From IMG/VR virus record IMGVR_UViG_3300042731_008053: a DNA stretch of 64,000 nucleotides; one strand, written 5' to 3'. The stretch's first letter is position 1. Each line of letters begins with the position of its first letter. Made by a program: the position numbers and the translations under genes. Below the pieces are notes generated by a model that worked only from the letters and a program-made list of their open reading frames with translations, was not told the origin of the DNA and ran no database searches. This stretch comes from a virus. Shown piece by piece: positions 4,407-26,439 of the stretch.

Positions 4407-4684
4407 AAAACCTCACCCGCGTTGTCAATATGCACTTCGAGCGGTGCGATGTCATCGTCGATCGCTCGTCGATGTTCGGCAACCCGTTCAAGGCTGGTCG
4501 TGACGGCAATCGCCTTCAGGTCATCGAGCGGTACCGGAGTTGGTTCGTGAGCCGTCTTGCCGATCCAGCCTTTCACGCCGAGGCAGAAAAGCTCAAGGGC
4601 AAGGTGTTGGGTTGCCACTGCGTACCCAAGCCGTGCCATGCACACGTCATCGCTGCGTGGTGCAACGGGGAGCTGGCAGCATGA
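4403..4684 (+). CDS. DUF4326 family protein
   Basis: VVNM..CDVIVDRSSMFGNPF...IERYRSWF...LKGKVLGCHCVPKPCHAHVI matches the DUF4326 signature common in phages. ATGA overlap with the next gene. Confidence 0.7.
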   Translation: MKNLTRVVNMHFERCDVIVDRSSMFGNPFKAGRDGNRLQVIERYRSWFVSRLADPAFHAEAEKLKGKVLGCHCVPKPCHAHVIAAWCNGELAA

Positions 4685-4974
4685 GTCCCTATCACTGCCC
4701 AGGCTGCGGGCGACTTGTGGCGGATTGTTTGTGCGAAACACCCCACCCCAGAAGCCGCCGCGCGCTTCAGCAGCGGCTATCAACACGTCAGGGTGATGCA
4801 GCACCGGTCTACATGGATCTCATCCGGATCGAAGGCGTGGAGTTCGAGCGCACCGAAGTCGGCTCGCTCAAAATCCACGCACCCGGAGCGAAACCCAAGT
4901 ACGCGTCGGCTGCCAAGGCGCGCGATCTGTTGACGTTTTTACTCCAGAATTTTTCTGCGACGGGGGACGCATAG
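4681..4974 (+). CDS. hypothetical zinc-binding protein
   Basis: ATGA overlap with the DUF4326 gene; CPGCGRLVADCLCE cysteine cluster. Confidence 0.4.
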   Translation: MSPYHCPGCGRLVADCLCETPHPRSRRALQQRLSTRQGDAAPVYMDLIRIEGVEFERTEVGSLKIHAPGAKPKYASAAKARDLLTFLLQNFSATGDA

Positions 4975-4976
4975 CA

Positions 4977-5237
4977 ATGAAACCGTTGCCAGATGTCCTC
5001 GACGAGTGCCTCCCAGTCACAGCTGACACAGCTCGTCGCCGCGCTACCGCACCGAACTACCGCGTGGCTGTAAGGGTCACCCACACGATTGAGGTCGATG
5101 TCAAGGCCAAGCACAGCCGGGACGCTGCCCACGCAGCTGTGGATAAATTGAGGACAGCAAGAATCCGGATCGACGGGATCGAAGAGGAGATCTCAACACC
5201 AGAGATCGTTTCGGTACGAGCGCGCAGAATCGACTGA
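4977..5237 (+). CDS. hypothetical protein
   Basis: ORF track; starts 3 nt after the upstream stop. Confidence 0.4.
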   Translation: MKPLPDVLDECLPVTADTARRRATAPNYRVAVRVTHTIEVDVKAKHSRDAAHAAVDKLRTARIRIDGIEEEISTPEIVSVRARRID

Positions 5238-5879: not shown

Positions 5880-6234
5880 TGTTGTCCTGTTGCCCGACGT
5901 CCCGCAAGACGAACCCTTCATCGACTGGTTCGGTGTTCCACTTCACCGAGAACAGTTTGAGGGCGAAAACACGCTCGAAGCGTTCGCCGGCACCAGCGCG
6001 CCCCAAGGCGGTAACGTCGATCACGGTGCCCAGACCGTGTTGATGGTGAGCGATCTGGACGCCACAGCGTTCACGTCGATCCGGGTCTTGATGCACGAAG
6101 ATGCCGAAACGCCCAGTGGATTTGCAGTCATTCTCGGCGGCGACTCCGAGGCAGCAACGTTCGCTGACGCACTGGAGTTCGCGGCAAAAACGATCCGACG
6201 CCAGCTCAAACAGAACCACGCTGGTCAGGGTTGA
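5839..6234 (+). CDS. hypothetical protein
   Basis: Internal ATG of ORF 5746-6234 overlapping the end of the upstream gene; acidic protein. Confidence 0.4.
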   Translation: MTRTVPQFAMTARDVVLLPDVPQDEPFIDWFGVPLHREQFEGENTLEAFAGTSAPQGGNVDHGAQTVLMVSDLDATAFTSIRVLMHEDAETPSGFAVILGGDSEAATFADALEFAAKTIRRQLKQNHAGQG

Positions 6235-6430
6235 TCGATTTTGCAGTACTTCAAACCGATCGACACCCACGTGACGTATGCGCGCTGCGCTGAACCGTGG
6301 CGCCGCCACAGTCACGAGACCGGCACGTGTCGCGTCAGGAACACAGTCGCCCACATGGCCCTTCGGTAAACGGCAATGCGCTCAGAGATCTATGCTCACC
6401 TGGCGCCCGATGCGTTTGAGGGGGTGCGAC

Positions 6431-22562: not shown

Positions 22563-23099
22563 TTGGGTAGACAGTCTCACGGTAACCGTCCAAGACCAAC
22601 CGGGCCTCGCACCAATAGCCGCATCCGTTTTTCGCCGGTCTTCGTTGTCCTCGAAGACGGTACCAAGCTCGGTGTCATGCCAACTGACGACGCGCGCACG
22701 AAAGCAGCCGAGCTGGGACTTGACCTGGTTGAGGTGTCACCCAATGCACGTCCACCTGTCTGTAAGATCATGGACTTTGGTAAGTTCAAGTACGACGAAA
22801 AGAAGCGTAAGAACGAACAGAAAAAACGCCAAGCCAAAGTCGAGTTGAAGATCATCAAGCTGCGCCCAAAAACGGACACGCACGACCTGGCGTTCAAAGC
22901 CAAAGCAGCTCGCAAATTCCTCGAAGCCGGCAACCGGGTCCAGTTTGAAGTGCGATTTCGTGGCCGTGAAAATGCGCATCCCAGAACGGGTCGCGCCGCG
23001 CTCGACAAGTTGATGGCGGACCTGGTCGATGTTGCCAAGCTCGAACGAGCCGCTCGCTACGAAAACCGTGTCATGACGATGCTCGTCGGCCCAAAATAG
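22563..23099 (+). CDS. infC: translation initiation factor IF-3
   Basis: RTNSRIRFSPVFVVLEDGTKLGVMPTDDARTKAAELGLDLVEVSPNARPPVCKIMDFGKFKYDEKKRKNEQKKRQ...VRFRGRENAHPRTG is collinear with bacterial IF3 N- and C-domains. Non-AUG start (TTG) 6 nt after SD GGAAGGAAG, as in other IF3 genes with non-AUG starts. Confidence 0.85.
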   Translation: MGRQSHGNRPRPTGPRTNSRIRFSPVFVVLEDGTKLGVMPTDDARTKAAELGLDLVEVSPNARPPVCKIMDFGKFKYDEKKRKNEQKKRQAKVELKIIKLRPKTDTHDLAFKAKAARKFLEAGNRVQFEVRFRGRENAHPRTGRAALDKLMADLVDVAKLERAARYENRVMTMLVGPK

Positions 23100-23605: not shown

Positions 23606-23801
23606 GCTCTCCTTCGAGTTTCCTGATTGGCTGGCGGGACGATGGCGTATTAGGCAAGTCACGGATACGTGTTTCTTCATCGAAGTACTGACCGGCAACC
23701 AGCATGGCGATCCTTACTGGGCCCTGAGAGAAGAAGTGCACAAAGAACACGGTTGGAAGTGGTCGTTGTGTGCTGAGCTAACAAAGAACGAATCTGAATG
23801 A
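23595..23801 (+). CDS. hypothetical small protein
   Basis: Internal ATG of ORF 23547-23801. Confidence 0.3.
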   Translation: MASRLSFEFPDWLAGRWRIRQVTDTCFFIEVLTGNQHGDPYWALREEVHKEHGWKWSLCAELTKNESE

Positions 23802-24115
23802 CTGACGACTTATTCCAACAACCATCAACCCCTTTGCCGCTTCCACCAGCACACCATGTCGAATCTGCTGCGTGTCGCCACGGCTGGTCGGCCTACGATG
23901 AGAACGGTAATCCGGTTTGGTTGACGTGCGATTGCGAGGATCCAACGCATCCGTGGTCGCCTCGTTCTGCGACCGATGGGCCGCGCGACTGCGATTGCTA
24001 TCACTGTGGTATCAAGCCTCGTGCAGAGCGTGGTCGCGCGCCGTGCGAGTACGCTGACCACCACTGTCCGTCGTGTCACGAGCGTGGACTGTGCACTGCG
24101 GAGGTATGCAGGTGA
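23798..24115 (+). CDS. hypothetical Cys/His-rich protein
   Basis: ATGA overlap; CDCEDP..CDCYHCG..HHCPSCHERGLC. Confidence 0.4.
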   Translation: MTDDLFQQPSTPLPLPPAHHVESAACRHGWSAYDENGNPVWLTCDCEDPTHPWSPRSATDGPRDCDCYHCGIKPRAERGRAPCEYADHHCPSCHERGLCTAEVCR

Positions 24116-24285
24116 TGGAGGCTGACGTGTGATATACCGTTCGCCCCATATGGAAGTGCATCGTGGCCCCTTATGCTTGTTGTGCCTGTTCGGTTGGCAT
24201 CGCACACATGAAAACGTAGTCTGGGATTGGCCAATACGCACTTCCACGACAATTTGCTGCCGCTGGTGCGGTCGATGGCGCCCTC

Positions 24286-24651
24286 ATGAAACTCGTCCAA
24301 ACAACAAACGACGACATACTGCAACCATTCGATAATGGGCGAGACGATCCTGTTGTCTGGCGCTGCTACAGTTGTGGCAACACCAGTGATGACAAGACGA
24401 CCAACGGTTTCCACCAGGTCACGTACGACACTGCGTGCGGCTATGAGTACGACACTGAATGCGGGGAGTGCGGCAGTCTCAACACGTTCTTTGACGGCGA
24501 AGGCGAGCCCGAGTGCGAAGAGTGCAGCAACCTCGGCTGGTACTGTTACAAGTGCAACAAGAGCAAGTGCGGTGAGTGTTGGACCTGGTTTGTTGTCGAA
24601 AAAGAACCCAAGGATTACGTCTGCCCGGACTGTCAAGGAGTGCCTGAGTAA
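24286..24651 (+). CDS. hypothetical Cys-rich protein (multiple CxxC)
   Basis: ORF track. Confidence 0.45.
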   Translation: MKLVQTTNDDILQPFDNGRDDPVVWRCYSCGNTSDDKTTNGFHQVTYDTACGYEYDTECGECGSLNTFFDGEGEPECEECSNLGWYCYKCNKSKCGECWTWFVVEKEPKDYVCPDCQGVPE

Positions 24652-24879
24652 ATGTCGCGCAGCACCAATGAGCCGATCCGTCCTGCCATTTGTGGCGAAC
24701 CGTTCACGGACAAGCAGGGAGCAGCGTCTAGGTGCCATCGAGAGCCCGGGCACAAACAACCCCACGGATATGGTGGGGACCTTGGTGCTCTACGCTGGTT
24801 CCTTCACTACCTGCCAGCCCGAGATCCGATGCGGCCTTTGGTAGAAAAAACGTGGCGTGATCTCGGACAAGACGCCTGA
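24652..24879 (+). CDS. hypothetical protein
   Basis: Starts directly after the upstream stop. Confidence 0.35.
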   Translation: MSRSTNEPIRPAICGEPFTDKQGAASRCHREPGHKQPHGYGGDLGALRWFLHYLPARDPMRPLVEKTWRDLGQDA

Positions 24880-24883
24880 CTAC

Positions 24884-25369
24884 ATGGCGCGGGTGATCAA
24901 AGATGGCACACTCAAACGCGCGACGCACACGTGTGTCTGGCGCCAGTGTCTTACCCTGGTCACGATAGTGCGTACACGACTCGTCAAGACACCCCAGCAA
25001 TGCGAGGCGCATTACGCTGATGGTAGGGGTACGTGGCAGCGGTGCTCAAACGATGCAACACGGTGGACGTCACACGATGGCGATACCATCGCATACTGCA
25101 AGCGTTGTTTAGGTGGAGTCCGGCGCGACCCGACAATCATGAAGCTCGACCGCGTCTACCACGATCGTGCTCACCCTATCCCGGTAGAACGTGATTGCGT
25201 CAAACGGAAAGCTCAACGCGAAGCGAGTTTGGGATACGCTGAACTCCCCGATGACCTGAAGTGCGGCTGCTGCGGCTACTTTCACGATTGTGGTTTGCCT
25301 GACCGTTGTCTTGACGTGTACTGCCGCCACCCCACGTACTTCCTTGGGGAGCAGCTGTGGCAAAGATAA
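24884..25369 (+). CDS. hypothetical Cys-rich protein
   Basis: Internal ATG of ORF 24857-25369. Confidence 0.4.
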   Translation: MARVIKDGTLKRATHTCVWRQCLTLVTIVRTRLVKTPQQCEAHYADGRGTWQRCSNDATRWTSHDGDTIAYCKRCLGGVRRDPTIMKLDRVYHDRAHPIPVERDCVKRKAQREASLGYAELPDDLKCGCCGYFHDCGLPDRCLDVYCRHPTYFLGEQLWQR

Positions 25370-25731
25370 TCGCTCCTGCATGGACGTGTGTTGTTCCGTG
25401 TGGCGACGAAAAAGTCCTCAGGGTTTCTTCGCGGTTTTTCAAGTTGCTTCAGGACTGGGACGTTCCGTGTTACGCACCCCAAACAGACCCTCCGGGCTTA
25501 CCAATCCACTTTGCGCCTGAGTGGGCCGTCAACACCTACCATGATTGCCGGGCTGCCTTGCAGCGAGCACGTCAATTTGGCCAACCGTTCAGTTACGACG
25601 CAAGCCTAGAGTATGCGTTGAGACGTGCAACCAGAGATCCCGAATTCAGAGCGGCTTTGTGTGCTGCCCTCGCAGTCAAAGGCGGTGCTGCGCGTTTTAT
25701 CAAGGCTCAAATGAAGTCTGCGCCACTCTAG
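25357..25731 (+). CDS. hypothetical protein
   Basis: GTG start overlapping the upstream gene. Confidence 0.4.
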   Translation: MAKIIAPAWTCVVPCGDEKVLRVSSRFFKLLQDWDVPCYAPQTDPPGLPIHFAPEWAVNTYHDCRAALQRARQFGQPFSYDASLEYALRRATRDPEFRAALCAALAVKGGAARFIKAQMKSAPL

Positions 25732-25755: not shown

Positions 25756-26425
25756 ATGAAGACATGCATCGTAGAGATTCGTGCTGCCGAGGGTGGCTCG
25801 GACGCAAAGCAGCTCGTCGAAGAGCAGCTGGCCATCTACACGCGCCTCGCTGCGCGGAGGGGTCTTTAGCCTTGATGTCGTGGACCAGCGTCCTGGTCTT
25901 ATCGTCGCCCACGTGAGTGGCGCAGGCGCCTGGAAGACCTTCCAGCACGAGCCTGGTGGCCACCGCTGGCAACGAGTCCCCAAGACAGAAAAACGCGGAC
26001 GCGTCCATACCAGTACCGTGACGGTCGCTGTGCTAGCTGAGCCAACACAGGTCGAGCTGCGGCTACCTGATCGTGACCTGGAATGGAGTACATGTCGCGG
26101 CTCGGGTGCGGGCGGTCAGCATCGCAACGTCACCAACAGTGCAGTGCAGGTCAAGCACCTACCGACAGGGACTCTCGTGCGCTGCGAATCGGGACGTTCC
26201 CAGCACGCAAATCGGGCAGCGGCGCTCGCACTTCTGCGCGCCAAACTCTGGGATCAGAAACGGTTGTCGGCGGCGAAAGCACGTGCGACAAAACGCAAAG
26301 CACAGGTAGGTTCAGGCCAGCGCGGCGACAAGCGTCGGACGATTCGGGTCCAGGATGGTCGCGTCACGGACCACATTACGGGCCGCTCGTGGCGGTTCAA
26401 GGATTACGTCAGGGGTCTTTGGTAG
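25756..26425 (+). CDS. Truncated class-I peptide chain release factor (PrfH/RF1-like, PKT tripeptide, GGQ) expressed via programmed +1 ribosomal frameshift at CUU UAG C (25864-25870)
   Basis: Frame A: ATG 25756, MKTCIVEIRAAEGGSDAKQLVEEQLAIYTRLAARRGL, then UAG. Frame +1 (frame of ORF 25781-26425) continues SLDVVDQRPGLIVAHVSGAGAWKTFQHEPGGHRWQRVPKTEKRGRVHTSTV...RGSGAGGQHRNVTNSAVQVKHLPTGT..SQHANRAAAL, collinear with RF1 domains 2-4. Shift site GGAGG-GGU-CUU-UAG-C has the same architecture as the E. coli prfB cassette AGGGGG-UAU-CUU-UGA-C. Confidence 0.8.
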
Positions 26426-26439
26426 TAGAATTCTCGTCA

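Follow-up and report, generated by a model that had tools for sequence, protein, structure and literature searches.

The question raised by this locus is how a release factor (RF) gene that changes its reading frame after 37 codons can be expressed. The gene lies in a 64,000-nucleotide stretch of viral DNA (IMG/VR record IMGVR_UViG_3300042731_008053), the whole of which is referred to here as the window. In an initial annotation of this DNA it had been proposed that the gene is of the RF1 type and needs a programmed +1 frameshift like that of prfB. The +1 frameshift at CUU_UGA_C is the textbook control of RF2. The analysis bears the proposal out, as the two reading frames form one RF1 and the cassette at their junction is conserved among relatives. 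A programmed +1 shift in this gene appears very probable, and the whole explanation, a frameshift-gated phage RF1-type factor consisting of domains 2, 3, and 4, is likely to be correct.

Frame 0 is opened by the ATG at position 25756, reads MKTCIVEIRAAEGGSDAKQLVEEQLAIYTRLAARRGL over its 37 codons and is ended by a TAG at 25867-25869, with a further stop (TGA) only one codon past it. The +1 frame (SLDVVDQRPG...RGLW) continues from 25868 and ends with a TAG at 26423-26425, which is directly followed by another TAG at 26426-26428; these are the tandem UAG UAG stops (26423-26428) already noticed at the end of the gene. The fused product of both frames has 222 residues, with GLSLDVVDQRPGLIVAHVSGAGAWK as the predicted trans-frame junction peptide. 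The junction itself could be confirmed at its coordinates in the window and reads CGG AGG GGT CTT TAG C, i.e., a Shine-Dalgarno (SD)-like GGAGG, three bases, CUU, the stop and a C. The distance from the SD-like block to the stop is six bases, equal to that in prfB. The pattern GGAGGNNNCTTTRR occurs a single time in the window, compared to 0.05 expected occurrences. The features of the gene are the following:

25756 to 25866, plus strand: frame-0 segment, ATG and codons 1-37 (M...RRGL), first strand and helix alpha-5 region of RF domain 2
25792 to 25797, plus strand: GG pair inside the frame-0 segment
25856 to 25860, plus strand: internal SD-like GGAGG within the codons CGG AGG
25864 to 25867, plus strand: putative slippery CUU_U, composed of the P-site Leu codon (25864-25866) and the first base of the stop
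25867 to 25869, plus strand: frame-0 stop UAG, the proposed sensor codon
25870 to 25870, plus strand: C located 3′ of the stop, weak termination context
25868 to 26425, plus strand: +1-frame segment, codons 38-222 and stop, rest of domain 2/4 and domain 3
25979 to 25987, plus strand: PKT (CCC AAG ACA), RF1-type tripeptide in the loop QRVPKTEKRGRVHTST
26111 to 26119, plus strand: GGQ (GGC GGT CAG), peptidyl-tRNA hydrolysis motif
26411 to 26420, plus strand: second copy of AGGGGTCTTT, coding for the C-terminal RGL-W

Both reading frames are required for one continuous RF1 alignment. The Pfam PCRF match runs without interruption across the junction (residues 2-90) and the Pfam RF-1 domain covers residues 98-206, while residues 88-309 of the Thermotoga maritima RF1 align unbroken with residues 4-218 of the fused protein (E = 1e-46). 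In the comparison with RF1, RF2, and PrfH profiles, which the initial annotation had asked for, the RF1 equivalog profile was matched best with 224 bits over positions 104-316 of 347, followed by RF2 with 135 bits and PrfH with 81.5 bits. The equivalog cut-offs of RF1 were not reached (TIGR00019, 224.3 bits vs. 400; NF001859, 215.5 bits vs. 423.25), and neither were those of the RF2 model TIGR00020 (135.4 bits vs. 370) and of the PrfH model TIGR03072 (81.5 bits vs. 166.65). The gene begins at the first strand of domain 2, corresponding to about position 104 of the RF1 profile, so that domain 1 is absent, and the open reading frame (ORF) upstream of it (25357-25731) has no PCRF or other Pfam match.

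The decoding loop GGHRWQRVPKTEKRGRVHTST is RF1-like throughout, with the conserved Gln and the HTS motif being kept, and contains QRVPKTE instead of the SPF of RF2. In the family alignment A1, the residues G119, G120, and Q121 are invariant. An AlphaFold model based on this alignment reached a mean predicted local distance difference test (pLDDT) score of 87.9, with values of 92-97 around the junction, which links a long helix (residues 15-34) to the strand that follows it (residues 38-45). Compared to the ribosome-bound (70S) RF1 of Thermus thermophilus, the model shows a template modeling (TM) score of 0.92 and a root-mean-square deviation of 1.8-1.9 Å, whereas the TM scores are 0.85-0.87 for RF2 and 0.66 for PrfH. 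Profiles, alignment and structure model thus agree with the earlier view of an RF1-like protein with PKT and GGQ but without domain 1; as predicted from them, the fused protein is a complete RF1 domain 2-3-4 module. With bacterial RF1 (prfA) it shares the PxT-type loop, the GGQ motif, the domain 2-3-4 fold as well as the best sequence and structure matches, but it differs in the missing domain 1 (about 105 residues), the shorter C-terminus and the scores below the equivalog cut-offs. Reportedly, E. coli RF1 and RF2 without domain 1 still release peptides in a codon-dependent manner in vitro, but no longer interact with RF3.

The missing domain 1 is also what had suggested a likeness to PrfH/RF-H, a class I RF homolog which lacks this domain as well. 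This part of the comparison stands, but the phage factor does not pass the PrfH model, and it differs from PrfH in its RF1-type PKT loop, in the weaker fold match and in having no RtcB partner among the ORFs scanned. A PrfH- or ArfB-like function in the rescue of stalled or damaged ribosomes, e.g., after the action of host defense nucleases, would fit the truncation, the loss of the PxT loop in some members of the family (L001, L004/L005, and L090) and the transfer-messenger RNA (tmRNA) genes which adjoin the gene in some relatives. However, the protein in the window keeps PKT, the conserved Gln, HTS, the GG pair and GGQ, its scores for RF1 and PrfH are far apart both in bits and in TM, and the ORFs scanned contain no RtcB; a rescue function is therefore considered quite unlikely. 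Membership in the PrfH, RF2 or ArfB families was rejected in each case on scores and motifs.

The two frames could also encode two separate products, namely a peptide of 37 amino acids and a shorter factor which starts within the +1 frame, e.g., at GTG 25781. An ORF of the +1 frame with this start does exist (25781-26425), but the part of its translation that precedes the junction shows no protein-level conservation. The residues of frame 0, in contrast, are conserved and correspond by homology to the beginning of RF1 domain 2 with its GG pair. Moreover, the shorter factor would lack both a decoding element and the strand with which the fold begins, which makes two separate products very improbable.

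For the comparison of the junction among relatives, their DNA was gathered from IMG/VR, GTDB genomes, JGI metagenomes and exact-protein look-ups. The top match in the phage database, the 485-kilobase (kb) uncultured phage record LR745208.1, was found in two pieces with CGGAGGGGTCTTTGACCTTG at the junction site. Among 88 viral loci, in which the N-terminal segment is conserved in frame 0, a +1 shift is required at exactly the same codon in 73 and a −1 shift in none, and the shift site is located 99 nucleotides after the IVEIR motif. The full set of unique loci with DNA comprises 234 genes, of which 134 belong to the truncated family, with almost every one of them on a contig of a large phage, and 100 encode full-length bacterial RF1. 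Recurrence of the cassette in related genomes, which had been named as the key check, was found in 105 unique loci: the +1 shift lies at the same codon in 105 of the 134 truncated-family genes, while none of the 100 full-length bacterial RF1 genes is interrupted. The truncated family is composed as follows (unique loci):

Frameshifted, CTT_TGA: 68
Frameshifted, CTT_TAG: 32
Frameshifted, CTT_TAA: 4
Frameshifted, CCT_TGA: 1
In-frame stop at the same codon, no frameshift: 4
L155, frameshifted (CTT TGA), mis-registered by the counting script and outside the 105: 1
Uninterrupted: 24

The stop at the shift site of the 105 frameshifted loci is accordingly UGA in 69, UAG in 32 and UAA in 4 of them. 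The closest relative for which DNA is available, L166 (81% identity), carries an identical UAG cassette, CGGAGGGGTCTTTAGCCTTGA. In the relatives the tripeptide is mostly PPT or PPN. The single CCT_TGA in place of CTT_TGA is located at about 1320 of L201, a locus which is cut by the contig end.

The same signal can be recognized at the protein level. Among the best 120 homologs from the protein database, 53 are intact and 59 are fragments of the +1 frame, in which xFD, xFE or xFS at the junction betrays the shift. Gene callers annotate just the +1 part of the frameshifted genes, as for the 97% identical protein P0001, and the annotations of phage RF genes are consequently systematically wrong. 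The exact look-up of P0001 gave no record, and when the 23 kb surrounding the gene were searched for near-identical DNA in the phage collection, nothing matched. The close family is essentially viral and is found on contigs of 50-620 kb; bins of GTDB contributed only two close matches, both on short contigs of metagenome-assembled genomes.

In the crude neighbor-joining tree, the frameshifted state fills a large clade and UAG turns up at eight or more separate points; uninterrupted genes are found at the base as well as scattered inside this clade. Uninterrupted relatives had been named beforehand as a finding that would speak against a programmed shift. They are present (24 loci, 53 proteins), but GGAGG and CUU are lost there, as is the case in the evolution of prfB. 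Three of the uninterrupted relatives share the peptide RRG(L/V)(D/E/S) and encode it by CGA AGA GGT CTC GAC, CGC CGC GGG GTC GAG, and CGG CGT GGA TTA TCG, from all of which both GGAGG and CTT are missing.

In the frameshifted genes, in turn, the codons of the junction are conserved. CTT precedes the stop in 104 of the 105 loci, and in 64 genes it is used at the shift site without exception (64/64), compared to 17.8% of their other Leu codons. GGAGG is found at the SD-like position in 56 of the 105 frameshifted relatives and GGGGG in another 7. The Arg-Arg pair is spelled CGG AGG in 55 of 59 genes vs. approximately 1.8% expected, since these codons make up 16 and 11% of the Arg codons elsewhere. 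The base 3′ of the stop is C in 86 and G in 13 of the 105 loci. As judged from this codon usage, selection is acting on the nucleotides of the cassette, beyond the encoded protein.

These data also decide on the possibility of a pseudogene, or of an extra T that stems from an error in assembly or sequencing. A single-base frame break is the commonest sign of decay or error, and the gene callers annotate the +1 part alone. In contrast, the same codon is broken in 105 unique, independently assembled loci with about 45-80% protein identity and no other disruption, CTT_T is nearly invariant, GGAGG is under selection at the nucleotide level, and the CTTT run is too short for a typical homopolymer error. 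Because the same break is conserved and its nucleotides are selected, decay or error is excluded for practical purposes, leaving it a negligible probability.

A different way around the frame break would be the reading of UAG as an amino acid, either by a reassigned code or by readthrough, so that no frameshift is needed. Recoding of stop codons is known in large phages, and four relatives have an in-frame stop at this very codon without a preceding CTT, namely L086 (CTA TGA, at approximately 4111), L089 (TAT TAG, approximately 4111), L090 (CTC TGA, approximately 4099), and L177 (CTC TGA). These relatives may need readthrough or a reassigned code. In the window, however, frame 0 meets the TGA one codon on and the homology goes on only in the +1 frame; furthermore, TAG ends many of the long ORFs, including this gene itself, and no tRNA gene is present in the 64 kb. 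Reading UAG as a sense codon is refuted here by the frame structure, with a negligible remaining probability. For L086, L089, L090, and L177, alternative sets of stops did not discriminate between genetic codes in the ORF coverage measure. In L002 (LR745206.1, AT-rich), L158, and L163, which are located on other phage contigs, in-frame TGA codons occur elsewhere in the gene and point to a sense reading of TGA in these three.

The cassette shares with that of prfB (RF2) the SD-like block six bases before the stop, CUU_U, a weak stop followed by C and the location in a class I RF gene; in both systems UAA is rare and relatives without the frame break lack the SD-like block and CUU. It differs in that the gene is a phage gene of the RF1 type, in which the shift site lies at codon 38 (about RF1 position 140, at the end of helix alpha-5 in domain 2) and not at codon 26 in domain 1 of RF2. 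Since the two sites are not homologous in position, an independent origin follows. A further difference concerns the stop: the window has UAG, and the phage family as a whole uses UGA, UAG or UAA, with an in-frame stop instead of the shift in some relatives.

A survey covering 12,753 genomes (mBio, 2025) detected no programmed frameshift in prfA; among its 8,164 prfB motifs, TGA made up 98.6% and TAA the rest, with no TAG. The same survey describes the parts of the prfB motif with the six-base distance from SD to stop, and the loss of the same elements in in-frame prfB genes. A reviewer comment to the RFH paper refers to the RF1 family as being without the frameshift mechanism, and according to the PRFect paper all cases of CUU followed by a stop in RECODE are prfB. 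Genes for RF1 or RF2 amid translation genes are also known from very large and recoded phages in the available text of Al-Shayeb (2020) and of the preprint of Borges (2021). There, RF1 is tied to UGA-recoded phages, whereas the window shows no sign of recoding, and the available text of both mentions neither a missing domain 1 nor a frameshift. A frameshift in phage or RF1-type RF genes was not described in the full-text literature searched, outside of which lie subscription-only papers. What is new is accordingly not the type of mechanism, which is that of prfB, but a second, independently evolved cassette in the RF1-type gene of more than 100 phage lineages which makes use of all three stops.

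In the proposed mechanism, ribosomes would initiate at ATG 25756 and translate 37 codons until CUU with its Leu-tRNA occupies the P site and UAG, followed by C, lies in the A site. At the same time, the GGAGG located six bases before the stop would pair with the tail of the 16S rRNA. SD-like motifs precede 31% of the crude gene starts in the window compared to a background of 9.6%, so an SD-like stimulator can work on the host ribosome. If a factor reading UAG is available, termination would release the 37-residue peptide. If it is lacking, the Leu-tRNA would slip from CUU to UUU, AGC (Ser) would enter the A site and the factor of 222 residues would be made. In the window this loop can be closed, as RF1-type activity, provided by host RF1 together with the phage factor, would repress further synthesis. 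The factor would supply termination capacity at UAG and UAA to a phage with unusually frequent TAG gene ends. That host ribosomes slip at this site, that they respond to the level of release factors and that the product reads UAG is what we infer from the sequence.

Several points weigh against this reading. Frameshifting as such is a prediction from the sequence, and any codon specificity of members with PKT, PPT, PPN or a deleted loop is likewise putative. The SD-like block is absent in some members, e.g., L102 and L165, and is thus not a universal stimulator. The need for more termination capacity is derived from figures of a crude ORF caller, which was the same for both sets of loci: TAG ends 24-28% of the ORFs in phage-family loci (GC content 0.45-0.62) but 10-12% in GC-matched bacterial loci (111/426 vs. 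26/235, p = 3e-6), and 26 of the 67 long ORFs (39%) in the window. As only RF1-type factors read UAG, additional capacity of this type is a reasonable need. A further point is that UGA occupies the shift site in two thirds of the relatives in spite of their RF1-like decoding residues. The identity of the stop shows no link to the tripeptide (PxT or PxN), with PPT and PPN occurring with both stops in viral and metagenome loci, no association with residues of the decoding region in 120 unique frameshifted members (90 UGA and 30 UAG), and none with the stop usage of flanking genes (TAG 30% in UAG-type vs. 27% in UGA-type loci). In a test of all alignment columns for stop identity, only the trivially linked residue 38 stands out, and weaker associations outside the decoding region probably reflect shared ancestry.

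Since UGA should not be read by an RF1-type factor, the UGA majority means that self-feedback cannot be a general rule of the family, and the UAG-specific autoregulation suggested in the initial annotation could not be upheld as its principle, given UGA in 69 of 105 loci and the lack of covariation with decoding residues. For the window, self-feedback at UAG has about an even chance of being real, and it is plausible also for its relatives L166 and L087, which likewise combine a UAG sensor with RF1-type residues. What is conserved is quite probably the gate, i.e., that the factor is made only if termination fails at a weak stop read by one class of factors. The avoidance of UAA, as in prfB, and the four lineages with an in-frame stop at this codon argue for the sensing of termination rather than for slippage per se. 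Among the phage lineages, repeated exchanges of the sensor appear to have taken place between UGA and UAG, with an occasional UAA, and in some cases an in-frame stop appears to have taken the place of the shift.

Alternatively, the cassette could sense host factors only, which would be RF2 in the UGA lineages and RF1 here, or it could set a fixed low output or a delay in timing, in each case without feedback by the product. This possible, but rather unlikely, account draws on the UGA majority with RF1-like decoding residues, on the lack of covariation and on the repeated switches between UGA and UAG which the crude neighbor-joining tree suggests; in addition, overexpression of RF lowers the fitness of Bacillus subtilis, which is a reason to limit output. 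In the window, however, the product should recognize the sensor codon, so that an active factor could hardly fail to feed back on its own synthesis. For plain attenuation a weak start site would do, yet the composite signal has been retained in more than 100 lineages, and the avoidance of UAA is expected where the sensitivity to one factor class counts.

The feedback reading would be extended to the whole family if the shortened factors, with their PPT, PPN or PKT loops and an Asp in place of Glu at the tip of alpha-5, read all three stops and thus represented a natural omnipotent factor of the bacterial type. This is regarded as unlikely; if it were true, every variant of the sensor would be part of a real self-regulating loop. 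As an observation on the decoding region, the PxT loop is deleted in L001 (at approximately 6200-6260), L004/L005, and L090, which read QRTSNGRIHSS, QEKSGGRMQTS, and MRDRTGKVHTS, respectively, with the cassette and GGQ being kept. Codon recognition must differ in these members.

Should the expression of this phage RF1-type factor indeed be gated by a frameshift, it would mark the first control circuit of this kind found in nature for such a factor. The family offers a natural experiment on what such a cassette senses, why UAA is avoided and how large phages manage termination capacity during infection, and a compact factor without domain 1 which carries its own sensor could serve engineered genetic codes.

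The genes around the RF gene fit a large phage-like genome better than the mobile element assumed before, as the window also encodes DnaG, a HerA/terminase-like ATPase and a lysin-like protein, whereas most other ORFs have no family match. A gene for a further translation factor is located 2.7 kb upstream of the RF gene:

22563 to 23099, plus strand: IF-3 homolog (Pfam IF3_N and IF3_C, approximately 1e-29 each)

A gene for IF3 is likewise found upstream of the RF gene in L166 (1327-1779). No RtcB domain was detected in the neighboring ORFs or in the large ORFs scanned, with small ORFs being covered only in part. In 32 of 75 relatives, tRNA genes are located within 4 kb of the RF gene, and at least five in 18 of these; suppressor tRNAs near the gene were not found in any of the 75 loci. 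In L087 (178-7827), the RF gene stands among 34 tRNA genes and is directly followed by a tmRNA gene (4666-5017). The RF gene is also embedded in tRNA arrays in L086, L089, L105, L124, and L149.

The second exact 10-mer noticed at the end of the gene, AGGGGTCTTT, is indeed present at 26411-26420, giving two copies in the window compared to 0.06 expected. Its nucleotides are not conserved in relatives, as the site reads CGC GGT CTA TGG in L166 and CGA GGC GTC TGG in L087, and it was rejected as a second shift site. The C-terminal ending RGxW is a feature of the whole family, and the second copy is probably a chance reuse of the same codons.

Between the IF3 and RF genes, small Cys-rich ORFs with many CxxC pairs are located on the plus strand (23798-25369); the only one of this run that was scanned (24857-25369) has no Pfam match. 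Finally, the plus strand of the window carries an ORF of 881 amino acids (7489-10134) with matches to the shoulder domain of the Major Vault Protein (5.5e-26) and to a vault repeat (7.6e-11); such a protein is unusual in a phage-like window.

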